Source of the DNA: Bacillota bacterium
GTDB lineage: Bacteria; Bacillota; Clostridia; Christensenellales; Aristaeellaceae
Reading direction: 5' to 3'
NCBI GenBank assembly: GCA_023404345.1
Contig: JAEYCB010000025.1
Coordinates: 16,221 to 80,220, forward strand
Length of the DNA stretch: 64,000 nucleotides
In this document: positions 38,053-50,228 of the stretch, piece by piece
Layout of the letters: every line of letters starts with the position of its first letter
Position numbering within the stretch: position 1 is the first letter of the stretch
The notes under the pieces: generated by a model
The model's database searches: none
Told to the model about the DNA's origin: nothing
What the model saw: the letters and a program-made list of their open reading frames with translations, nothing else
Position numbers and translations under genes: made by a program

Positions 38053-39789
38053 ATGAATAACGCAGCAATTTTTCACAGGCCATCCAGCGAATACGCCTTT
38101 GCTCTGGATGATACGCACTATGTGTTCCGCCTGCGCGCGCAGGCGGGCGACCTGACTTCCTGTGCCATGTGGTATGCCGACCGGGCCACGATGGGGCCGC
38201 TGTGCTACCAGCGCGTCCCCATGGAAAAGCGATATACGGACACGCTGGTGGACTGGTTCGAACTTCGCCTGACCACGGAGTTCAACCGCATTGCCTACTA
38301 CTTTGAACTCTGCGAAGGGACCAAAACCGTCTACTATATTGGCGGCATGTTTCAGGACACGCCACAGGCAGAACGCTCGGATGGATTTCAATTCGCCTAC
38401 AACCACCGTGCCGACCGTCTGACGGTGCCGGATTGGGCCGCGGACGCGGTGGTTTACAACATCTTCCCCGACAGCTTCGCTACCAGCGCATCCTTTCTGA
38501 TGAAGCGGCCCCAAAGCGTTGCCTTCAGCGGCGAAACCTGCCATTCGCTGCTGGGGGGAACGTTGCGCGGCATCTGTGAAAACCTGGACGCCATCGAAAC
38601 TCTGGGTTGCAACTGCCTCTATCTCAATCCCATCTTTGCCGCCGGCTGCTACCATAAGTACGACACCCTGGACTACTTCCGCGTGGACCCCTGCTTTGGC
38701 ACCGGTGATGACCTGAAACAGCTGGTACAGGAGGCGCACAGACGTGGCATGCGCGTGATTCTCGACGGCGTGTTCAACCACGTAAGCAGCCGCCATCCCT
38801 TCTTTCAGGACGTGCTGGCCAAAGGCCGGCAGTCGGAATACTACCACTGGTTCTATGACCTTCCGAAGCACCCCTGCCTTCCGGCGGAGGGGGAAATGCC
38901 CGGATATGCCTGCTTCTCCTATGTGGCGCACATGCCCAAGACGGACCTGTCCTACCCAGAGGCACGCAACTACTTCTGCAATGTCGGCCGCTACTGGATC
39001 GAGGTCTTTGACATAGACGGCTGGCGGCTGGACGTGGCCAATGAAATTAATGACGGCTTCCTGCGCGCCTTCCGTAGTGCAGTCAAGGCTGCAAAACCCG
39101 ATGCGCTGATCATCGGCGAGGTGTGGGAGGATGGATCGCACTTTTTGCAGGGCGACATGCTGGACGCCTGCATGAATTATGATTTCCGACGCTTTGCTCT
39201 ACAATTTTTTGCCCGGCGTGCCATCGATGCGGGCGGACTGGCCGTGGGGCTGCACTGGCTGCTCACCCGTTATAAAGAGCCTGCTATGTTCGCACAGCTC
39301 AACCTGCTGGATAGCCACGACGTGAGCCGCTTTTTGACCGAGTGCGGCGGGAACGAGGCGCGCATGCGGCAGGCCGTGGTGTTCCAGATGACTTTTCCGG
39401 GCATGCCCAGCGTGTTTTATGGGGACGAGCTGGGTCTGACCGGTGCCTCCGAACCGGAGTACCGCCAGGCCATGCCGTGGGGAGCGGACCATCCGCTGCG
39501 CGCGCTGTACCAGGAGCTTATCGCCCTTCGCCGCGCTCATCGGGCGCTTCGGCGGGGCCGCTTCCTGCTGGAGAGAGCGCAGGGTGAGGTGCTGCGCTAT
39601 GCCCTGGAGGATGAATCGGAGCGCATCTGCGTCCTATTCAACCGTGCGGGCGCGCCAGTGGACGTGCCGGCGGATATGGAGATTCTCTTCCAACACGGCG
39701 TCCTCTCCGGACAGCTTACGGCGGGCGGCTGTCTCATCAGCCTCGCCCCTGCAAAGGGAGGCTTTTTGTATGGCAGTCACCATTTATGA
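38053..39789 (+). CDS. GH13 alpha-amylase family enzyme (neopullulanase/cyclomaltodextrinase-like, cytoplasmic)
   Basis: The four conserved GH13 regions are present: VILDGVFNHVS, DGWRLDVANEI, IGEVWED, NLLDSHD. No signal peptide. Confidence 0.85.
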   Translation: MNNAAIFHRPSSEYAFALDDTHYVFRLRAQAGDLTSCAMWYADRATMGPLCYQRVPMEKRYTDTLVDWFELRLTTEFNRIAYYFELCEGTKTVYYIGGMFQDTPQAERSDGFQFAYNHRADRLTVPDWAADAVVYNIFPDSFATSASFLMKRPQSVAFSGETCHSLLGGTLRGICENLDAIETLGCNCLYLNPIFAAGCYHKYDTLDYFRVDPCFGTGDDLKQLVQEAHRRGMRVILDGVFNHVSSRHPFFQDVLAKGRQSEYYHWFYDLPKHPCLPAEGEMPGYACFSYVAHMPKTDLSYPEARNYFCNVGRYWIEVFDIDGWRLDVANEINDGFLRAFRSAVKAAKPDALIIGEVWEDGSHFLQGDMLDACMNYDFRRFALQFFARRAIDAGGLAVGLHWLLTRYKEPAMFAQLNLLDSHDVSRFLTECGGNEARMRQAVVFQMTFPGMPSVFYGDELGLTGASEPEYRQAMPWGADHPLRALYQELIALRRAHRALRRGRFLLERAQGEVLRYALEDESERICVLFNRAGAPVDVPADMEILFQHGVLSGQLTAGGCLISLAPAKGGFLYGSHHL

Positions 39790-40765
39790 TCTGGCGCGCG
39801 AGGCGGGCGTTTCCATCTCCACCGTCTCCAAGGCACTGAGCGACAGCTATACGATTTCAGAAAAAACCAAACAGCATATATTAGAAACCGCCCATCGGCT
39901 CCAGTACAAGCCCAACGCCCGTGCCCGCAGCTTCGCCCGGCAAAAAAGTGGCACCGTTATTTTTGCCACAGATCTGTATCAGGACATTGCCTTTGAAAAT
40001 CCGCACATGTTCGCCATTCTCACCGGCGTCACCCGCTCTTTGGAAGACAAGGGCTACTCGGTGCTGCTGAGGCATATGGAAAAGGGCGGCGCGACCACCT
40101 ATGTACGCGAGCTGATGCAGGAGCGCCTGGCCGATGGCGTCATCCTGCATGCAGCACTGCTCACCCGCGATCTGGCTGCCTTTTTAAGTCATGCTGAGGC
40201 CCCCTATCTGGTTATCGGCCGGCCCAACTTTCCGTGCAACATCTGCTGGATGGACGTCAACCATGAGCTGGCTGGCGGTGTAGCCGCAAACTATCTGTTG
40301 GATCGGGGATACCGCCGCATCCTGTACCTGGGCGGCGGGCCGGAGGATGCCATTTCTCAAAGCCGCCTGAAGGGCATGGAAGCTGTCCTGCGAGAGGAGG
40401 AGCTTACCGTGGATACGCTCTTTGGCAGCACGCCATACACCGAGGATGTTGAGGAACTCAGGCGCAGGTTATCCGGCGAAAGCCGTCCGGAGGTGGCGCT
40501 ATGCGCCAACAACCGCATCGCCCTGGAATGCCTGCAATCTGCCATGCAGCTGGGGCTGCGTATTCCTCAGGACCTGGCGCTGATGACCTTTGACCGCTAT
40601 CCCTTTTCTCAGCTGCTCATTCCCCGCCTCACCGCCGTGGAGGTAGATATGTTCGATATGGGATCGGAGGCGGCGCGCTTTCTTCTTCAAAAGATAAAAA
40701 AGCCAAGGCTGCAGGCGCAAACCTTCTGCACTACTCCCCGGCTGATTGAAGGGGAATCCACCTGA
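39770..40765 (+). CDS. LacI-family transcriptional regulator
   Basis: MAVTIYDLAREAGVSISTVSKALSDS HTH followed by a PBP type-1 effector domain. The start overlaps the GH13 3' end. Confidence 0.85.
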   Translation: MAVTIYDLAREAGVSISTVSKALSDSYTISEKTKQHILETAHRLQYKPNARARSFARQKSGTVIFATDLYQDIAFENPHMFAILTGVTRSLEDKGYSVLLRHMEKGGATTYVRELMQERLADGVILHAALLTRDLAAFLSHAEAPYLVIGRPNFPCNICWMDVNHELAGGVAANYLLDRGYRRILYLGGGPEDAISQSRLKGMEAVLREEELTVDTLFGSTPYTEDVEELRRRLSGESRPEVALCANNRIALECLQSAMQLGLRIPQDLALMTFDRYPFSQLLIPRLTAVEVDMFDMGSEAARFLLQKIKKPRLQAQTFCTTPRLIEGEST

Positions 40766-41113: not shown

Positions 41114-41875
41114 TCATGCAAAAGCAGCCAGCAATGCATCATGTACCAGTCCGTTGGAGGCTGCCAGCGGCGCACTGCGCCCTTTCATTTTCGGGGATTG
41201 GCCATTTTCCAGCAACGTCAGTCTCCCACCCGCCTCGGTGAGAATCAGCCAGCCCGCGGCGTAATCCCAGGGGTAGAGGTAATGAAACACCGAGGCCGTG
41301 AAGCGCCCGCAGGCCGTATAGCACAAATCCAGCGCCGCTGAGCCGGTAAAGCGTATGCCTCTGCCACAGGTATGCAGTGCAAACACGCGCTCGAAGTAGG
41401 CATGCTGCCCCTCGCCCGCCGTCGCAGGTCCGGCCTCCACGCCCACCACCGCTTCCTCCAACGTTTCGTCGGCATTTACATGGATGGGCTGACCGTTGAG
41501 CGTAGCGCCTTTCCCCAGCTCAGCCAGAAACATCTCACGCGTAAAGGGATTGCACACGCCTGCTGCCATAAGCTGTCCATCCTCGGCATAGCCGCAGGAG
41601 ATACCGCTGAGCTGCATATGGTACATCAGGTTGGTTGTTCCGTCGATAGGGTCCACAATAAACACCCTGCCGCTCAGGTCTCCGGCGTCCGCCTCTTCTT
41701 CACTGAACACCCGGCTTCCGGCGACCAGACGGGGAAGGGCACCGCGCAGGTAACGGTCAACGGCCAGATCAACGCTAGTCACAAAGTCGGACTTTCCCTT
41801 GCTCTGCACACTCAGGCTCTCCGTCAGAGTCAGCTCGCCGGCCTGGCGCAGCGTACGTTCCAGTTCCTCAAGCAT
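41114..41875 (-). CDS. Inositol-monophosphatase-family phosphatase
   Basis: Motifs FIVDPIDGTTN and YPWDYAAG. Confidence 0.8.
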   Translation of the reverse strand: MLEELERTLRQAGELTLTESLSVQSKGKSDFVTSVDLAVDRYLRGALPRLVAGSRVFSEEEADAGDLSGRVFIVDPIDGTTNLMYHMQLSGISCGYAEDGQLMAAGVCNPFTREMFLAELGKGATLNGQPIHVNADETLEEAVVGVEAGPATAGEGQHAYFERVFALHTCGRGIRFTGSAALDLCYTACGRFTASVFHYLYPWDYAAGWLILTEAGGRLTLLENGQSPKMKGRSAPLAASNGLVHDALLAAFA

Positions 41876-41905: not shown

Positions 41906-42589
41906 TCATTTCTCCGCTTCCACCACGGAAAATCCCATCTCCCGCAGCATCCCGGCGTAATCGCCGTCCAGATGCATACAGTACACGCCCGCACGTTTTT
42001 CCGGAGGAATACGCTCCGCCAACCGCTTGTAGCAGCAATGTGCCGAAGATTCATGGCTGGCAGTATCATGGTAGAGGCGCGCGATATTCCCGTTCAGATA
42101 CCCATTGGCCACCGCGTCGGGCAAAATGGCCGAATCGCCGCTGAAGTAGATGGTTTCGCCACTGCCGCTGATCAAATAACCAAAGGCGCTCATATCCTCA
42201 GCATGAGGTACCTCCACAGGTCTGGCACTCACAGGGCAATCCGCTTCCAACGCGGACAGGTAGCGGTAGAAACTGGGGGCAATACCTTGTAGCGCCAGCA
42301 TGCGAACCACTGTATCCAACGGATGAACCACGCTCACCTGCATCTTCAGCACGCAATGGGTATAGGAAATCAGCGAAGCAAGCGATCCGGCGTGGTCGGC
42401 GTGCAGGTGGGTCAGCAGCACGTACACATGCTTATAGCGCGTAAGGTCAAAGCGGCGGTACACCTTTTCAAAGGCGCTTTCGCCAAAATCCAGGAAGAAC
42501 AGGTCTCCATCGGCCTCAAAGTAAGCGTTGGTATTGCCCTCAACGGGGTAGAAGGCAGCTCCCCGGCCCAGAAATTTCAGGTCAAGCAT
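41906..42589 (-). CDS. MBL-fold metallo-hydrolase
   Basis: THLHADHAGS metal-binding motif. 227 aa. Confidence 0.75.
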   Translation of the reverse strand: MLDLKFLGRGAAFYPVEGNTNAYFEADGDLFFLDFGESAFEKVYRRFDLTRYKHVYVLLTHLHADHAGSLASLISYTHCVLKMQVSVVHPLDTVVRMLALQGIAPSFYRYLSALEADCPVSARPVEVPHAEDMSAFGYLISGSGETIYFSGDSAILPDAVANGYLNGNIARLYHDTASHESSAHCCYKRLAERIPPEKRAGVYCMHLDGDYAGMLREMGFSVVEAEK

Positions 42590-42595
42590 CGGCTG

Positions 42596-43417
42596 TCACT
42601 CCTTGACGCCCGCGCTGACAAAGCTGTTCATGAACTGCTTTTGCATGATGAAGAACGCCAGCAGCAACGGGGCAATAATGATGAGGGTCGCGGCGCAGAC
42701 GTTGGCCCACTGCATGTCGGCCTCCTTGGATTTGGCAAAGATGGCCAGGCCCACCGTCAGCGTACGGTTGGTGGGGGACTTGGTCACGATCAGCGGCCAG
42801 AGATAGTTGTTCCAGTGGTAGCTGACCGAGATGACCGCAAAGGACATGTATGCTGCCTTGGCGCAGGGCATATACACCTGCCAGATGGTCTGCTGCAGAT
42901 TGGCACCGTCGATGCGCGCAGCCTCGCCAAAGGCACGCGGCACGGTCTTGAAATGCTGTCTGAGCAGGAAGATGGCCAGTGCACTGCCCAGGAAGGGCGC
43001 CATGATACCCAGTTTGGTGTCGATCAGGCCCATTTCGGAAAGCGTCATGAAGTTGGGGATAATCAGCACGTCGTTGGGGATGATGATCTGCATGAAGATC
43101 ACCACAAACATCAGCGCCTGTCCCTTAAAGTTGTAAAATGCAAGGGCATAACCCGCCAGCGTGGAGGTGACGAACTGGATAGCAAAGGTGACCACCACCA
43201 GGATGATGGTGTTGAGGTAGTACTGACCGAAGGGGATGGCGTTCCACACATAGGTCAGATTATCGGTCGTAAAGGGGGTGTTGGGGATGAAGGACATGTT
43301 GAACGACGGTTCGGTCAAGGCCGTACCGATCAGCCACACCAGCGGCGCAAGCCAGATCAGGCCCAACAGCACAGACAGCGCGGTCAGCGCGCCGGAATTG
43401 AACTTTTTCAGCGTCAT
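42596..43417 (-). CDS. Carbohydrate ABC transporter permease
   Basis: Polytopic, with EAA loop GEAARIDGANLQQTIWQVYMP. GGGAGGAAGAG SD before ATG 43417 (second ATG of the tracked ORF). Confidence 0.85.
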   Translation of the reverse strand: MTLKKFNSGALTALSVLLGLIWLAPLVWLIGTALTEPSFNMSFIPNTPFTTDNLTYVWNAIPFGQYYLNTIILVVVTFAIQFVTSTLAGYALAFYNFKGQALMFVVIFMQIIIPNDVLIIPNFMTLSEMGLIDTKLGIMAPFLGSALAIFLLRQHFKTVPRAFGEAARIDGANLQQTIWQVYMPCAKAAYMSFAVISVSYHWNNYLWPLIVTKSPTNRTLTVGLAIFAKSKEADMQWANVCAATLIIIAPLLLAFFIMQKQFMNSFVSAGVKE

Positions 43418-43437
43418 GGTTCTCTTCCTCCCTTGCA

Positions 43438-44337
43438 TCAGGCGTAGTGGATCTTGCGGTCCTGGCTGAAAAAGCGCGGCATGGACACCACCAGCAGCAG
43501 CACCAGCATAATCACCGTCAGCGCGGAGGAAACGCCATAGTTCATATTGGTGAAGCCCTGTTGATAGATGTAGTACAGAAGAAGCGTACTGGCATTATTG
43601 GGCGCGCCCTCAGTCATGATGATGACATGATCGGCCAGCTTGAAGCAGTTGGTGAAGGCGATCGTGGACACAAACAGCGTGGTGGGGGCCAGCAGGGGCA
43701 GCGTAATGTGGCGGAAGGTGCGCCAGCCAGTCGCGCCGTCAATGGAGGCAGCCTCCAGCACGTCGGCGTTGATGCTCTGCAGGCCGGAGAGGAAGAACAC
43801 CATCAGATATCCCGCTTCGCGCCATACATACATCACGGCCATGGCAGGCAGCACCGTGTCCTTGTTGGACAGCACGTTGAGCGGCCCCACGCCGATGGCG
43901 ATCATGATCTGATCGAACAGGCCGTTGCGCGCCATGTAGATGAACATCCACACGCTGGCGATGGCGATCATGGGCATGACGGAGGGGTAAAAATAGCTGG
44001 TACGGATAAAGCCGATATGACGTCCTTTGCGGTTGACCAGCATGGCTAGCGCCAAGCCCAGCACCATGCTGGGAATCACAGTATAGAGTGCAAAAACAGC
44101 GGTGTTGCGCATCACCTTCCAGAAAGTAGCGTTGCGAAACAGACGCGCGAAGTTGTCAAAGGCGATAAATTCGGGAGCCTCCATGCCCATGCGGTACTTG
44201 GTCAGGCTCAGGTACACGCTGCGAAGGACCGGGTACACCGTAAAGATCAGCATAATGATCAGCGCAGGTGCGATCAGGCCCCAGGCGGTCAGCACTTCCT
44301 TGCGGCGGCGCTCTGCGGCGGTGGAGATGCGGTTCAT
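43438..44337 (-). CDS. Carbohydrate ABC transporter permease
   Basis: Polytopic, with EAA loop LEAASIDGATGWRTFRHITLP. The start is assigned to MNRIS (ATG 44337) on the basis of the GAGAGG SD and is uncertain. Confidence 0.8.
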   Translation of the reverse strand: MNRISTAAERRRKEVLTAWGLIAPALIIMLIFTVYPVLRSVYLSLTKYRMGMEAPEFIAFDNFARLFRNATFWKVMRNTAVFALYTVIPSMVLGLALAMLVNRKGRHIGFIRTSYFYPSVMPMIAIASVWMFIYMARNGLFDQIMIAIGVGPLNVLSNKDTVLPAMAVMYVWREAGYLMVFFLSGLQSINADVLEAASIDGATGWRTFRHITLPLLAPTTLFVSTIAFTNCFKLADHVIIMTEGAPNNASTLLLYYIYQQGFTNMNYGVSSALTVIMLVLLLVVSMPRFFSQDRKIHYA

Positions 44338-44426
44338 GGCGTTCATCCTCTCTGGCATAAACGGTCGCAGGATACAAGGCGGGGCCACGGACTGTGCCCA
44401 TGGCCCCGCCGCTTCAAGTGGGTGCG

Positions 44427-45713
44427 TTATTGATAGTCAAAGAGCAGGTCGTCACCCTGTTGCTGAGCAGCTTCCAGAGCCTCGGCGGCGGTCATTTCAC
44501 CGGTCACAGCAGCCTGGATGTTGTCGTTGAGGATACGCCACATTTCGGCAGCGGAGTAGGTGGTCAGCTCGGGCTGCGCATAGGGCAGCTGCTGGTAGGC
44601 CACCAGCGCCTGCGGGAAGTCGGCGTAGTAATCCTTGAGCAGCTGGGTCTCATAGCAGCTCTCACGGGTGGCCACGTAGCCGGTGTCGATGGACCACTGG
44701 GCGGCGCGCTCGGTGGAGCAGCAGAACTTGATGAATTCCCATGCAGCTTTCTGGCGCTCCTCGGAGATGCCGTTGGTGATATAGAAGTTACCACCGCCGG
44801 TGGGCGCGCCCCACTGACGGCCCGCGGGCAGGAAGCACACGCCAAAATCAAAGGTGGCATTGTTCTTGATGTTGGTCAGGTTACCGGTGGTGTGGTAGAT
44901 CATGGCCACTTCGCCGGCCAGGAACTGGGTGGGCAGGTCAGTCCACTGCACAATGCCAGGAGCCATGCACTTGTACTTGTTCTGCAGGTCCAGCCAGAGC
45001 TGCAGGGCCTCGATGTTTTCGGGGGTATTGAAGTAGACTTCCTTGCCGTCGGCGCTCATCAGGCCCACGCCGTTGGTGCAGTTCTGCAGGGAGAAGCCCG
45101 TAAAGGCCCACTGGGCGGAGCCGGAGTTGAGCGCGATGCCCACGCCATAGCGGTTCTCATTGGTCAGCTTCTGAGCATACTCGACCATTTCGTCCCAGGT
45201 AGTAGGAGGTGCTTCGGGGTCCAGGCCCACTTCCTTAAAGGCATCCTTGTTGTAGAACATAACCATCGTGGAGCGCTGGAAAGGAATGGAGTAGATGCTG
45301 CCGTCCACGTAGGAGTCCAGCATGAAGCCATCGATGAAGTCGTCCACAAAGGCCTGGCCTTCGGGATCAGCGGCGATCAGGTCATCCAGCGGCATGGCCA
45401 TTTTGGTATCGGCCATGGTGAAACGCTGCGTGGCCAGGCTCACGAACAAGTCAGGCGCGTTGCCGCCCTGGATAGCGGTCTGAATCGCCGTCACCGTGTC
45501 ATCATAGTTGCCGGTGTAAACTGCCTGTACCTGCACGTCCGGATTTTCAGCGTTGAAGTCCGCAGTCATCTGGTCAATCAACTTGGCCGCATCGCCGCCA
45601 ACGTTGACAGGGAAGTACATCGTAAGCTGCAGCGGTTCCTCCGCCAGAGCGGGAAGGACCAGAGAGCTTATCAGCATCATGAGTACAAGCGCGAAGCCGA
45701 GGAGTTTTTTCAT
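44427..45713 (-). CDS. ABC transporter extracellular solute-binding protein (family 1)
   Basis: Signal peptide MKKLLGFALVLMMLISSLVLPALA. 428 aa SBP_bac_1-like. Confidence 0.85.
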   Translation of the reverse strand: MKKLLGFALVLMMLISSLVLPALAEEPLQLTMYFPVNVGGDAAKLIDQMTADFNAENPDVQVQAVYTGNYDDTVTAIQTAIQGGNAPDLFVSLATQRFTMADTKMAMPLDDLIAADPEGQAFVDDFIDGFMLDSYVDGSIYSIPFQRSTMVMFYNKDAFKEVGLDPEAPPTTWDEMVEYAQKLTNENRYGVGIALNSGSAQWAFTGFSLQNCTNGVGLMSADGKEVYFNTPENIEALQLWLDLQNKYKCMAPGIVQWTDLPTQFLAGEVAMIYHTTGNLTNIKNNATFDFGVCFLPAGRQWGAPTGGGNFYITNGISEERQKAAWEFIKFCCSTERAAQWSIDTGYVATRESCYETQLLKDYYADFPQALVAYQQLPYAQPELTTYSAAEMWRILNDNIQAAVTGEMTAAEALEAAQQQGDDLLFDYQ

Positions 45714-45828
45714 GGGGCAGCCTCCTTATGTTTTTTTCTTGATGAAAGCATGATAACGTAGAAAATGAATCGTGTCAATCGAAATTTTGGAAAATTTGTC
45801 GAAACCTCACCCATTTTTTTAAAATTGT

Positions 45829-45858
45829 TTGCCAAATCATATCAGACAATGATATAAT
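45829..45858 (+). promoter_or_regulatory. Promoter TTGCCA-18-(TG)aTATAAT for the LacI-PBP1-SBP regulator
   Basis: TTGCCA at 45829-45834 and TATAAT at 45853-45858. Confidence 0.5.
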
Positions 45859-45920
45859 ATAGCCCAGATTAATTGGCGAAACGATTCAATTTATCTATAT
45901 TTACGGATGCGAGGTGTCAT

Positions 45921-48131
45921 ATGGTAACCATCAAGGACATTGCCAAGGCTGCCGGCGTAGCGCAAGGCACGGTTTCCAACGTGCTCAACGGCCGCGGAAA
46001 CGTAAGCAGTGAAAAGATCCGCCACGTGCTGGAGGTCAGCGAGGCCCTTGGCTACGTACCTAACGAGCGTGCAAAAATGCTGCGCAAGGGAAACGCCAAA
46101 ACCCTGGGCGTGCTTTTACCCAACCCTCCCGCTCAGCACGAGCTGGACTTCTATTATAGTTTCAAGATTTATGCTGAAAGCCACGGCTACCGGGTACGCC
46201 AGTACCTGCCGCGCTCCATATGTCTGGAGGCAGAGGAAGCCGCTTTGCAGGAAGCCCGCAGCGACATGGTGGCGGGCATGGCTGTTTTTTCAAACTGCCT
46301 GCACCACAGCAGCTACCGGCCTGTCGAAAGCGCAGGGCAGGAGATGCGCCTTTTGTTTGTGGAACGCAAACCTAACTTTGAGGCGGCATACATCGGCTTT
46401 GATTATGAAAAAGCCGGCCGCGACATGGCGCAGAAGGCTCTGCAAAACGGCTACCGCCACGTAGGTCTGATCACTGATACACCCCGTTTTTCACACGCTG
46501 CGGCGTTCTATCGCGGATTTACGCAGCGCCTCGAAGGTACTCCGGTGAAGATTACCGCCGTGCAAACCAACGAGCGGCGCAGGTTCCAAAATATATTGGA
46601 AGCGGATGGCCTGGCTCTGACCGACGCCGTCTTTGCCTCCAGCCTGACCTTTGCACAGACTGCCCGTGACGTGCTGACCTCCTTCTACGCAAAGGAAAGT
46701 CCCATCATCTACACGGTTTCTTCCATTCACACCTTACCGGAGATGGATTTTCAAAAATACGAGCTCAACTACCGTCTCTTGGGTAATACGGCAGCCCGGA
46801 TGCTAGTCAGGCAAATCGAAAAAAACAGCCCATCCGAAACCCGGGTAATGGAGAACGCCGGTTTCCGCAGCTGGCTTTCTCCCTGCGCTGTGCGGTCTTC
46901 TCCGGCGCCCATTAATGTGCTTACGCTGGACAGTCCGACCGCCTATATCATGCGGCATATGGCCAGGCTCTACACCCGTCAGACGCAAATTCCCATTAAT
47001 ATCACCATCTATACTTATAATGAAATCTACGAAGCCTTCAACAGTCTGGATGATGACGCTATTTTCGATGTATTGCGTCTGGACGTGACATGGCTGAGTT
47101 GTTTTGCCGAGCGCATCCTGCGTCCGCTGGAGGAGATCGACCCTTCTGTCACCAGTCTGCTGAGTAACTTTCTGTCAGGAACAGCGGAGCAGTATGCATA
47201 CGTAAACGGCGTAATGTACGCTGTGCCCAATACACCCAGCACGCAGATGCTCTTTTATCGGCGGGATCTGTTTTCCAGCGCCATTTACCGCCGCATGTAC
47301 CAGGAGCTTCACCATCAGGAGCTCAGCGTACCGCAGACCTTCGAGGACTTTAACCGTGTGGCGGCCTTCTTTACCAAGGCAATCAATCCTGAATCGCCTG
47401 TGGATTATGGCGCTACGCTCACTTTCGGCTCCACAGGCGTGGCGGGAAGCGAATACCTGTCCCGTCTGTTTGGCTTGCAGGAAAACCTGTATCAAAGCGA
47501 CGGAGAAATCCGGCTGAACAGTCCCGTCGGCGTGCGTGCCTTGGAACAGCTAATGGAAGTGAAACGTTTCACTGACCCCCAGTACTGCTCCTGGTGGACC
47601 AATACGGCAGCCACCTTCGCCGAAGGAAACGTGGCCATGGCTATTCTATACAATAACTTTACCGCTCCGCTGCTGAGCCATCGTTCACGGGTACAGGATA
47701 GTATCGGTTACGCCATGGTGCCGGGTGGACGGCCCGTCATTGGCGGCGGCGCACTGGGCGTTTCACGTTTTTCCCGCCAGCCGGAGCAGGCGCTGGATTT
47801 CATCCGCTGGCTCTCCAGCGAGCCCGTAGCTTCCGCCTGTACGCTGTTGGGAGGCGTATCTCCCTGTAAGCAATCCTATGATAACTATGAAATCATCAAC
47901 AACTATCCCTGGCTGAAACTGGTCAAAAGCTGCTTCGGCGCCGCCAGAGGCCGCCGCATGCCCCCGCAATGCACCGTGCCCTTTGACGAGCGGCGTTTCA
48001 TGAGCATCATCGGTATGGCGGTCAAAAACGCCTACAGCGGTGCTCTAACTCCGCAAGCCGCCATGGACTATGCGCAAAAGCGCTTCGAGGAACAATTTGC
48101 TCAAAACCTGGCGCAGCTCAAGTCGCGTTAA
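45921..48131 (+). CDS. Three-module regulator: LacI HTH + PBP type-1 sugar-binding domain + complete family-1 solute-binding (SBP) domain, cytoplasmic
   Basis: MVTIKDIAKAAGVAQGTVSNVLNGRGNVS forms the LacI HTH. Residues about 60-330 form a LacI effector fold. Residues about 340-735 look like a full SBP_bac_1 domain (..MLFYRRDLF.., ..GYAMVPGG..GGGALGVS..). There is no signal peptide or TM helix. Confidence 0.75.
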   Translation: MVTIKDIAKAAGVAQGTVSNVLNGRGNVSSEKIRHVLEVSEALGYVPNERAKMLRKGNAKTLGVLLPNPPAQHELDFYYSFKIYAESHGYRVRQYLPRSICLEAEEAALQEARSDMVAGMAVFSNCLHHSSYRPVESAGQEMRLLFVERKPNFEAAYIGFDYEKAGRDMAQKALQNGYRHVGLITDTPRFSHAAAFYRGFTQRLEGTPVKITAVQTNERRRFQNILEADGLALTDAVFASSLTFAQTARDVLTSFYAKESPIIYTVSSIHTLPEMDFQKYELNYRLLGNTAARMLVRQIEKNSPSETRVMENAGFRSWLSPCAVRSSPAPINVLTLDSPTAYIMRHMARLYTRQTQIPINITIYTYNEIYEAFNSLDDDAIFDVLRLDVTWLSCFAERILRPLEEIDPSVTSLLSNFLSGTAEQYAYVNGVMYAVPNTPSTQMLFYRRDLFSSAIYRRMYQELHHQELSVPQTFEDFNRVAAFFTKAINPESPVDYGATLTFGSTGVAGSEYLSRLFGLQENLYQSDGEIRLNSPVGVRALEQLMEVKRFTDPQYCSWWTNTAATFAEGNVAMAILYNNFTAPLLSHRSRVQDSIGYAMVPGGRPVIGGGALGVSRFSRQPEQALDFIRWLSSEPVASACTLLGGVSPCKQSYDNYEIINNYPWLKLVKSCFGAARGRRMPPQCTVPFDERRFMSIIGMAVKNAYSGALTPQAAMDYAQKRFEEQFAQNLAQLKSR

Positions 48132-48704: not shown

Positions 48705-49598
48705 GTGCAAAAATCAAATAAACCGCAGACAGATTATACCGCAATGACGAACGGATTTCAACTGGTCATACCACTGGACTGCGAAGTAAATATTGCAAAG
48801 AATTCACCGGTGAGATTGCTCAATGCCGTCATGGAAAGGATGGATTACAGAAAACTGTATGCGGCATACTCCCGACTTGGGAGAATCGAGTACTCGCCGA
48901 AGATTCTACTGAAAATCATGGTGTACGGATATATGCGCAAGCAGATATCCAGCCGTGCGCTTGAAGCATGCTGTCGGGAGAATATACACTTTATGTATCT
49001 GCTTGAGGGACAGCCGGCGCCGGATCACAATACAATCAACCGTTTCTGCAAGAACCTCCTGACCCAGGAGGCAGGGCAAGATATTCTGCGGCAGCTTGTA
49101 TTGCTGCTGCACGAAAGTAATCTGCTCAGTTTTGAAGCCGCCTTCATAGATGGAACAAAGATCGAAGCAAACGCAAACAAGTACAGCTTCGTCTGGAAGA
49201 AAGCAACTGTGAAAAAGACAGACAAGCTGCTGAAGAAAATCCACGAAGAACTTCCGGCAAAGCTTAAGAATGTAAGCATTCGCTTTCATGTTCCGGAGAA
49301 GATTGCTGTCCGGCAATTAAAGAAACTCCGTAAACGGAGTCATGAGCGAATCAAAACAGAAGAAATTGAGTTTGTTTCAGGAAAGGGAAAGAGAAAAACA
49401 CCTCTGCAAAGACTGAGTGAGCAAGTGGATCGGTGGATTGCCCAACTCAAGCAATATACAAATGATATCCATATCTGTGGAAACCGAAACAGTTACAGTA
49501 AAACAGACCATGATGCAACCTTCATGCACATGAAAGAATGCTCTTATTGCCGCTGTTACAACAGGAGTCGGTTACGAAAAGTTAAAGGCGAGATATAG
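48705..49598 (+). mobile_element. IS1182-family transposase, 3'-truncated fragment
   Basis: Blocks NSPVRLLNAVMERMDY, YSPKILLKIMVYGYM, DGTKIEANANKYSFVWKK and SKTDHDATFMHMKE match IS1182-type transposases as I remember them. Similarity ends near 49545, and the DDE catalytic part is missing. Confidence 0.7.
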
Positions 49599-50228
49599 TA
49601 TTTACAATCATCAAGAATCAGAATAACGGGGGCGTCAAGCGAATTCAGAAAAGAATACACATTGGAGCAGATGCGTGAAATTATTAAAAACGTGCGAATG
49701 GTTAAAAATATGACAGACAGAAGGTTTTTGCTCTTATTATCATTGCATCCGCTGAGGTTGGAAGAAGTTTTGGGGCTTAAATGGAGCGATATTGACCGGG
49801 AAAACATGATTTTGCATGTAAGGCGAGCAGTAACTCATCCAACCAGAAATTTGCCGGAAATCAAAACACCAAAAACCGTATCAAGCATCAGAAGTATGAG
49901 CCTGTCAAGAAAAGCGGAAAAAGAACTTGGCGATGGAAATCCAGATGATTTTATAATAGGTGGCCCATCACCATACTCTTATACAAAAGTGAAAAGAATG
50001 TGCGAGAGAATACAAAAAGATATCGGTTTCGAAGAAAAAATAACCCCGAGTCGTTTTAGAACAACAGTATTGACCGATATTTATGATGTAACAAAAGATA
50101 TTAAACAGACACAACTTGCGGCAGGTCACACTACCGCAGCCATGACGCTAAAACACTATATAAAGGGGCGTAAAGAAAATACGAAAACATCGGATATTAT
50201 AGACAGTGTATACGGACAATGCAGCTGA
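49599..50228 (+). pseudogene. Tyrosine integrase, catalytic-domain fragment (N-terminal domains missing)
   Basis: LSLHPLRLEEVLGLKWSDID (box I Arg), TPSRFRTTVLTD, AGHTTAAMTLKHYIK (His..Tyr). The frame opens only at 49599, directly after the truncated transposase. Confidence 0.7.

Follow-up and report, generated by a model that had tools for sequence, protein, structure and literature searches.

A cytoplasmic LacI-type regulator with a fused solute-binding-protein fold and its predicted operator at a putative organophosphate-uptake operon

A gene in a 64,000-nucleotide stretch of a Bacillota genome (assembly GCA_023404345.1, contig JAEYCB010000025.1, positions 16,221 to 80,220; hereafter the window) encodes a protein of 736 amino acids in which a LacI-type DNA-binding domain and a periplasmic-binding-protein (PBP) type-1 core are followed by a complete family-1 solute-binding-protein (SBP) fold. 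This architecture is real, conserved, cytoplasmic and widespread, and it is misannotated: hundreds of these proteins are labelled in the databases as "extracellular solute-binding protein". What might such a protein do? With slightly better than even confidence, we read it as a LacI/GalR-type repressor of the divergently transcribed operon, which would take up an organophosphate, with the SBP fold acting as the sensor of the effector.

The regulator is encoded by a single open frame that runs from an ATG at 45921 to the stop codon at 48131, and the Shine-Dalgarno sequence GAGGTG lies 4 nucleotides 5' of this ATG. A longer product starting at a TTG at 45873 is unsupported, because M1, T3 and the motif MVTIKDIA are invariant at the N-terminus of the homologues. 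The gene and the parts of its product are the following:

45921 to 48131, forward strand: regulator gene, 736 amino acids (LacI helix-turn-helix, PBP type-1 core and family-1 SBP fold)
45921 to 46094, forward strand: LacI-type helix-turn-helix (HTH; Pfam PF00356) and hinge helix, residues 1-58, with invariant A51 and L54 (the "leucine lever")
46095 to 46856, forward strand: PBP type-1 (LacI/GalR) core, residues 59-312, identified by a profile match to the Lac repressor; fast-evolving, with the canonical sugar contacts replaced
46857 to 46910, forward strand: variable inter-domain linker, residues 313-330 (36% identity; none of 18 positions conserved)
46911 to 48128, forward strand: complete family-1 (CUT1-type) SBP fold, residues 331-736, without a signal peptide (SBP_bac_8 and SBP_bac_1, Foldseek)

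Three kinds of evidence agree on this order of domains. Pfam places the LacI HTH at residues 3-48 (E 7e-13, 48.6 bits against a cut-off of 27), and both SBP_bac_8 at residues 349-660 (E 1e-19, 71.9 bits) and SBP_bac_1 (E 1.4e-13, 52 bits) score above their cut-offs. Matches to Peripla_BP_3 and Peripla_BP_4 at residues 154-252 are slightly under the gathering score, with 24.3 bits against 26.5 for Peripla_BP_3. When a profile of 42 homologues is used instead of the single sequence, residues 2-312 match residues 4-319 of the Lac repressor (E 6e-19) as well as CcpA and PurR, with LacI-family E-values of 1e-15 to 1e-22, and residues ~327-728 match transporter SBPs. An AlphaFold2 model built on the homologue alignment has a predicted local distance difference test score (pLDDT) of 84 and a predicted template-modelling (TM) score of 0.73. 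In this model the core shows alternating beta/alpha secondary structure, and over the last ~400 residues the chain can be superposed on structures of complete SBPs, with Foldseek TM scores of 0.80-0.85, normalised to the target. Among these structures are Thermotoga maritima MalE3, the sulfoquinovosyl-glycerol binder SmoF and the trehalose/maltose binder of Thermococcus litoralis. The module also aligns with Escherichia coli MalE and UgpB from the first beta-strand through the last helix; the E. coli reference sequences of LacI, MalE and UgpB were taken from NC_000913.3.

No hydrophobic segment fit for a signal peptide or a transmembrane helix is found in the regulator, whose highest 19-residue Kyte-Doolittle score is 1.05; the signal peptide of the adjacent transporter SBP reaches 2.43. 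There is likewise no signal peptide at the junction of the LacI core and the SBP module. It is implausible that the module delivers substrate to a permease, since it is a cytoplasmic domain and the operon encodes an exported SBP of its own. An earlier note, made from the letters of the window, had described a 736-residue frame starting at 45921 with a LacI HTH, a LacI-type effector domain and an SBP of ~400 residues, had taken the product to be cytoplasmic for want of a signal peptide or transmembrane segment, and had placed it divergent from an operon of an SBP, two permeases, a hydrolase of the metallo-beta-lactamase (MBL) fold and a phosphatase of the inositol-monophosphatase (IMPase) family. 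All of this is borne out by the domain searches, the structural model, the hydropathy values with an HTH at the N-terminus, and the gene order in the window; the significant SBP-family matches settle a doubt that the note had raised about the C-terminal region.

Are two separate genes simply joined in this assembly? A word-indexed search with the regulator returned at least 384 proteins, of which the best 120 are all full-length and 48-92% identical. An exhaustive profile search found about 589 cluster representatives (clustered at 50% identity) at E<=1e-30; among the best 150 of these clusters, nearly all are 700-755 amino acids long and match from residue 1 to ~728. The phyletic distribution, which the note had proposed to determine, is broad: species-representative genomes, when scanned, yielded 76 full-length loci in several phyla, namely in Clostridia, Treponemataceae, Sphaerochaeta, Paenibacillus, Erysipelothrix, Streptococcus pluranimalium and Anaerolineales, and in Klebsiella, Serratia, Phytobacter, Gilliamella, Haemophilus parainfluenzae and Aggregatibacter. 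The closest relative among the scanned genomes is that of Candidatus Limiplasma (Clostridia), at 64% identity, and the window's own genome has a single copy. In a class-level sampling, at least 4 of 399 genomes held a full-length match, a lower bound with two candidates scored per genome. An assembly or sequencing error that fused a LacI regulator gene to an SBP gene would be in keeping with the few database entries that are split or short, such as the pair P0315 and P0278 on one contig. Against it stand hundreds of homologues of the same full length from isolate genomes and metagenome-assembled genomes of several phyla, the junction free of a signal peptide, and an SBP clade without close stand-alone relatives. 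Because full-length homologues at 50-92% identity occur in many independent assemblies, we regard such an artefact as extremely unlikely.

Two homologous loci stand apart. On one 33-kb metagenomic contig the regulator is split into an N-terminal product of 262 amino acids and a C-terminal one of 309 (P0278/P0315), which is either a frameshift or pseudogene, or a flaw in the sequencing behind that assembly. One contig binned with a Prevotella metagenome-assembled genome (L021) carries a 51%-identical regulator together with the same Firmicutes-type operon, whose SBP is of the lipoprotein type; this contig is probably mis-binned, or else the locus was transferred horizontally.

The SBP module and the neighbouring transporter SBP do belong to the same Pfam family, as the note had stated, but they share only 23% identity. 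A recent duplication of the neighbouring gene is rejected on this ground, the module being a separate clade. Used as a lone query, the module retrieves fragments of the fusion proteins and then nothing above ~30% identity. The low identity to the neighbour and the absence of a close stand-alone relative in that search indicate that the fusion is old and forms a clade of its own.

Which of the two stacked folds would sense the effector? The parts of the protein have evolved at different rates. Averaged over the orthologues, the HTH is 82% identical to that of the window protein, whereas the SBP module reaches 62%, the core 44% and the linker 36%. Family-wide conservation was scored over 62 members with less than 75% pairwise identity, a position counting as conserved at 85% or more. 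By this measure 31 of 58 HTH and hinge positions are conserved and none of the 18 in the linker; the core has 7 conserved positions out of 254 and the SBP module 46 out of 406, so that the density of conserved residues in the module is four times that of the LacI core. They include D383, R386, D388, Y446, R447, D449, R458 and E462, and further W559, N579, G608-610, W630 and W664. Both R458 (98% family-wide) and E462 (100%) lie in a regulator-specific insertion of ~10 residues that transporter SBPs lack. In the core, the family-wide conserved positions are P67, Y74, Y78, E105, R149, F160 and Y284. The LacI sugar contact R197 aligns with an invariant phenylalanine (F196) and D274 with serine or proline; among the canonical polar contacts R197, D274, N246 and D149, only D149 still has an acidic counterpart (E148), in an alignment of core and LacI that is uncertain around residues 245-270. 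The positions that align with the LacI cleft are instead rich in conserved aromatics.

Some ligand contacts of UgpB align with conserved polar and aromatic residues of the SBP module. The ligand contacts E66 and W169 of UgpB are documented (bioRxiv 10.1101/529602). E66 aligns with D388, which is 100% conserved family-wide. In an alignment of ~20% identity, UgpB contacts are kept or conservatively replaced at Y366, D388, S440, Y512, N579 and G608, and W169, Y323 and R374 are not kept. Further UgpB contacts, which we take to be S121, W172 and S247 and which were checked for residue type only, are paired with S440, an aromatic at position 512 (Y512 or phenylalanine) and N579, respectively. UgpB itself is absent from the best PDB matches of the module.

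The SBP module is the likelier effector sensor, because it is richer in conserved residues and because the core has lost the sugar contacts. The core, fastest-evolving and without these contacts, looks more like a scaffold for dimerisation and transmission than like a second sensor. Recruitment of an SBP fold to sense inside the cell, as the note had suggested, is thus the best reading of the conservation data, and stays an interpretation of them; the note's further suggestion of two-signal logic is unsupported as stated.

The note had also proposed a search for operator half-sites between the operon and the regulator (45714-45920). When the upstream regions of the transporter operon from 13 divergent orthologous loci were aligned, they shared the 16-mer ATTGAAACGTGTCAAT; in the window this candidate operator is a 16-bp palindrome centred on CG. 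A symmetrised position weight matrix (PWM) was built from the sites of the orthologous loci. The sites and promoters discussed below are:

45764 to 45779, no strand assigned: predicted operator O1, AATGAATCGTGTCAAT, reading ATTGACACGATTCATT on the operon strand and holding the -35 hexamer (PWM 23.8 bits)
45750 to 45778, reverse strand: sigma-70-type promoter of the operon, -35 TTGACA (45778-45773), 17-nucleotide spacer, -10 TATCAT, 11/12 consensus matches (consensus scan)
45829 to 45858, forward strand: promoter-like site of the regulator, TTGCCA, 18-nucleotide spacer, TG-TATAAT, 11/12 consensus matches (consensus scan)
45875 to 45890, no strand assigned: weak second operator-like site, GGCGAAACGATTCAAT, just 3' of the regulator -10 box (PWM 9.1 bits)
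47558 to 47573, no strand assigned: perfect 16-bp palindrome AGTGAAACGTTTCACT in the regulator coding sequence, in the codons for EVKRFT (PWM 17.7 bits)

The site at 45764-45779 is the best PWM match in the 2.98-Mb genome, in which only six sites reach 15 bits, and it is conserved in 17 orthologous loci. In 15 of these the operator reads ATTGACACGTTTCAAT on the operon strand and is followed 17 nucleotides on by a -10-like hexamer. Beyond the loci that entered the PWM, 51 of 58 loci, across phyla, have the operator ATTG(G/A)AACGTGTCAAT 15-120 bp 5' of the gene that opens the target operon, and its TTGACA is always oriented toward the target operon. Spirochaete loci, which were also outside the PWM set, have the operon convergent with the regulator; there the 16-mer lies ~65 bp 5' of the UgpB-like gene and ~6.1 kb away from the regulator start. 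This placement shows that the site follows the operon promoter and not the regulator gene. The -35 hexamer inside the operator accounts for a conserved break in its perfect symmetry (ACGTGT rather than ACGTTT). The overlap of operator and promoter is the classical layout for repression through promoter occlusion, and we infer repression, as opposed to activation. The central CG and the invariant hinge residue Leu54 fit the way in which LacI-family proteins bind DNA, and the recurrence of one operator across loci fits the HTH being the best-conserved part of the protein.

The two other sites may have lesser roles. The regulator could possibly control its own gene through the weak site at 45875-45890, a less certain proposal; the closest relative (L017) has a stronger counterpart of 16.8 bits. 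The palindrome at 47558-47573 is the second-best PWM match genome-wide and is a possible auxiliary operator, although its position is not kept in relatives: the internal site of L017 lies elsewhere, at +383.

The genes of the target operon, all on the strand opposite to the regulator, are these:

44427 to 45713, reverse strand: exported UgpB-like SBP of an ATP-binding cassette (ABC) transporter, with a signal peptide (NCBIfam UgpB E 7e-53, below cut-off)
43438 to 44388, reverse strand: UgpA-like ABC permease
42596 to 43438, reverse strand: UgpE-like ABC permease
41906 to 42589, reverse strand: MBL-fold metallo-hydrolase, a probable phosphodiesterase (Pfam Lactamase_B/B_2)
41114 to 41875, reverse strand: IMPase-family phosphatase (Pfam Inositol_P, E 6e-47)

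The best PDB matches of the operon SBP are UgpB structures (6x84 and 4aq4, ~1e-46), and the MBL hydrolase is weakly similar to a cyclic-nucleotide phosphodiesterase model, to Apyc1 and to RNase Z. All orthologues of at least 46% identity adjoin the same set of SBP, two permeases and MBL hydrolase, a neighbourhood also found in Lacrimispora celerecrescens. Among the orthologous loci compared, the IMPase gene is limited to the closest relatives (L017, L020 and L001).

The neighbours of all 76 family members were clustered to obtain the theme of the regulon. Nearly every member adjoins one of three transporter types: a UgpBAE-like system, an SBP of the aminoethylphosphonate/thiamine type with an ATPase and a fused permease, or a transporter of the major facilitator superfamily that belongs to the nucleoside-permease family. 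Each type is paired with a phosphodiesterase, which is a glycerophosphodiester phosphodiesterase (GDPD) with DUF4996 in 24 loci, an MBL protein of the kind seen in the window in 16 and a PhnP-like MBL protein in 11. In 21 of 76 loci the gene for MgtC stands beside transporter and phosphodiesterase, and phosphatases of the HAD, Cof or IMPase type are common. The family would therefore govern a single, functionally coherent regulon across phyla, for the uptake of an ester-phosphate compound and its hydrolysis.

This MgtC/SapB-family membrane protein occurs in regulated operons of several phyla, for example in L030, L036, L048, L052, L057, L072 and L074. A distant member with 30% identity (L014) lies inside a PBP type-1 sugar ABC transporter operon that also encodes SDR dehydrogenases, two DeoC/LacD aldolases and an FGGY kinase, so not every family member controls a phosphodiesterase locus. 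In the window itself, a conventional LacI-family regulator (HTH and Peripla_BP_1/3) is encoded at 38053-40765, where the listed open reading frame (ORF) is probably over-extended at its 5' end. It overlaps or follows a gene of the alpha-amylase/neopullulanase type, an ordinary sugar regulon beside the unusual one.

What is the substrate of the operon? Plain sn-glycerol-3-phosphate is unsupported, as the operon SBP has alanine at the position of UgpB Glu66 and its UgpB score is below the equivalog cut-off. Most plausibly the substrate is a glycerophosphodiester-like compound, the leading candidate because a UgpB-like transporter and GDPD enzymes occur in the family's loci. Mycobacterium tuberculosis UgpB binds several glycerophosphodiesters, including glycerophosphoinositol (bioRxiv 10.1101/529602). 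That glycerophosphoinositol is also the substrate here is a speculation that draws on the IMPase of this operon and on a distant member (L015) that has inositol-dehydrogenase-like genes next to it.

From these data the following mechanism can be proposed. The regulator would bind DNA, probably as a dimer, through the HTH and hinge helix like other members of the LacI family, and the dimer would occupy 45764-45779, over the -35 hexamer and spacer of the divergent promoter. This overlap means that the bound regulator would exclude RNA polymerase. The operon would import an organophosphate through the UgpBAE-like importer and dephosphorylate it stepwise by means of the MBL (phospho)diesterase and the IMPase. 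The SBP fold would close in the cytoplasm on the imported compound or its first breakdown product, which we infer to be the effector, and its closure would be relayed through the LacI core, acting mainly as a dimerisation and allosteric scaffold, to release the operator. A wider proposal, which we hold tentatively and at somewhat below an even chance, is that the family forms a distinct allosteric class of LacI proteins. In such a class a fused SBP would act in cis as co-effector on a degenerate core, and one operator with one phosphodiester-scavenging regulon would extend across at least five phyla, sometimes transposon-borne and including the pneumococcal MgtC/"operon 804"/Tn7090 cassette.

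Several observations weigh against the SBP module as the sensor. The core residues F77, E148, F160, F196, E274 and Y284, which align with the LacI cleft, are conserved among orthologues. The module is a C-terminal appendage far from the HTH, and in overall similarity to it UgpB ranks behind trehalose/maltose and sulfoquinovosyl-glycerol binders. Its pocket residues were assigned from sequence alignments of ~20% identity.

The conservation of the core cleft, together with the seven core positions conserved family-wide and with the intactness of both folds, would suit a two-input regulator, in which core and SBP clefts bind different small molecules, such as substrate and product, and integrate them. 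We think this unlikely, though not far-fetched: no other folded part is as poorly conserved as the core, its Pfam PBP type-1 models are under threshold, and with Phe and Ser/Pro at the equivalents of R197 and D274 its greasy cleft may simply be filled. Alternatively, the SBP fold could bind no effector and serve for oligomerisation (a dimer of dimers, with DNA looping) or for docking of a partner, the signal entering through the core or that partner. The window has three operator-like sites, at 45764, 45875 and 47558, the last of them second-best in the genome; L017 also has three, and the insertion with its near-invariant R458 and E462 could be an interface. The positions of the extra sites, however, are not conserved, in most loci, orthologous or family-wide, only one site is strong, so that looping is not general, and the conserved residues of the module include typical SBP-pocket positions. 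We think such a role unlikely as well, and slightly more so than a two-input regulator.

The regulon itself could be read in another way, as one for acquisition of a metal (iron or magnesium), with the metal or a chelate as effector. MgtC is a frequent neighbour, and the second of the transporter types is similar to ABC systems for iron, thiamine or aminoethylphosphonate. The operon 804 of pneumococcal strain D39 (SPD_1606-1610 / SP_1821-1827) was proposed to be an iron importer, which also speaks against an organophosphate regulon, and an effect on cellular iron was reported for SPD_1609, the SBP of this syntenic operon of MgtC, permease, ATPase and SBP genes (PMC4738293). That report argues for iron from indirect evidence, what consistently goes with the transporter is a phosphodiesterase (GDPD, MBL or PhnP-like), to which a phosphatase is often added, and the transporter in the window is UgpB-like. 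We therefore give a metal regulon only a very small probability and retain the reading of an organophosphate-responsive repressor.

The current database label hides this regulator family. Its recognition corrects the annotation and predicts an operator and a regulon in gut, oral and environmental bacteria; the correction probably extends to a pneumococcal operon flagged as virulence-associated. The protein is also a natural case of a repressor that carries two periplasmic-binding-protein-like folds in a stack, of interest for the evolution of LacI-family allostery and for biosensor design. The operons point to an uncharacterised nutrient pathway of transporter, phosphodiesterase, phosphatase and MgtC, for which the sensor domain of the regulator could be used as bait for the substrate. 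As the earlier note had supposed, a literature search found no functional study of the LacI and SBP architecture and no characterised member; it gave only an annotation table entry for orf7 of Tn7090 (PMC10383233). New here, as judged from sequence comparison, are a defined predicted operator, its overlap with a putative promoter and a probable regulon theme for a LacI-SBP repressor; the family falls among the LacI-type one-component regulators and is not a new kind of system.

How does the regulator compare with known ones? With LacI, PurR, CcpA, GalR and RbsR it shares the HTH, the hinge helix with its conserved leucine and the PBP type-1 core, and with LacI/GalR repressors in general a CG-centred palindromic operator over the target promoter and a divergent transport or catabolic operon. 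Those repressors are ~330-360 amino acids long and have a single sensor, whereas the 736-residue regulator has an extra SBP domain of 406 residues; it further differs from them in the replaced R197 and D274 and in having the core as its least conserved part. CcpA shows that a LacI-family core can be controlled through a protein surface instead of a small molecule in its cleft, since the small protein HPr-Ser46-P docks on its N-subdomain. Control by the fused SBP module would thus have a precedent, with the difference that HPr is a protein apart, whereas the putative controlling module here is fused in cis at the C-terminus. Regulators of the SgrR type consist of a winged helix and SBP_bac_5 and use a transporter-type SBP fold as an intracellular sensor, their sole sensor module. 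The present regulator has another DNA-binding head, another SBP family, and an SBP stacked on a second PBP-like fold.

The one printed entry for this architecture comes from Streptococcus pneumoniae BM6001, in which orf7 of Tn7090 encodes a protein of 675 amino acids with a LacI HTH (1-66) and an SBP domain (334-619). It lies in a cassette of GDPD, SBP, ATPase, fused permease, MgtC, HAD and regulator genes within a composite transposon flanked by IS5-family repeats; orf7 was interpreted as an extracellular SBP for Mg2+ uptake and adhesion, and no regulator was recognised (PMC10383233). This cassette is of the same type as 30 of our loci, whereas the window has a UgpBAE-like transporter, and an MBL protein instead of GDPD. 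Directly 3' of the regulator, at 48705-50228 in the window, are a DUF772 (IS5-type) transposase ORF and a phage-integrase fragment. Given the IS5-type transposase here and the IS5-flanked cassette of S. pneumoniae, the cassette in the window may be mobile as well. SP_1821, a LacI-family regulator beside MgtC and an ABC transporter, is among the virulence-associated pneumococcal genes (PMC6722419) and, judged by synteny only, would belong to the LacI-SBP family.

The operon itself resembles the UgpBAEC/UgpQ systems of E. coli and M. tuberculosis, with which it shares a UgpB/A/E-like SBP and permeases and the coupling of uptake to a cytoplasmic phosphodiesterase. It differs from them in that the diesterase is of the MBL fold rather than GDPD, the operon has no ATPase gene, and the SBP has alanine at the Glu66 position, with scores below the NCBIfam equivalog cut-offs. 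The operon in the window is further predicted to be under the control of the LacI-SBP protein and not of PhoB.

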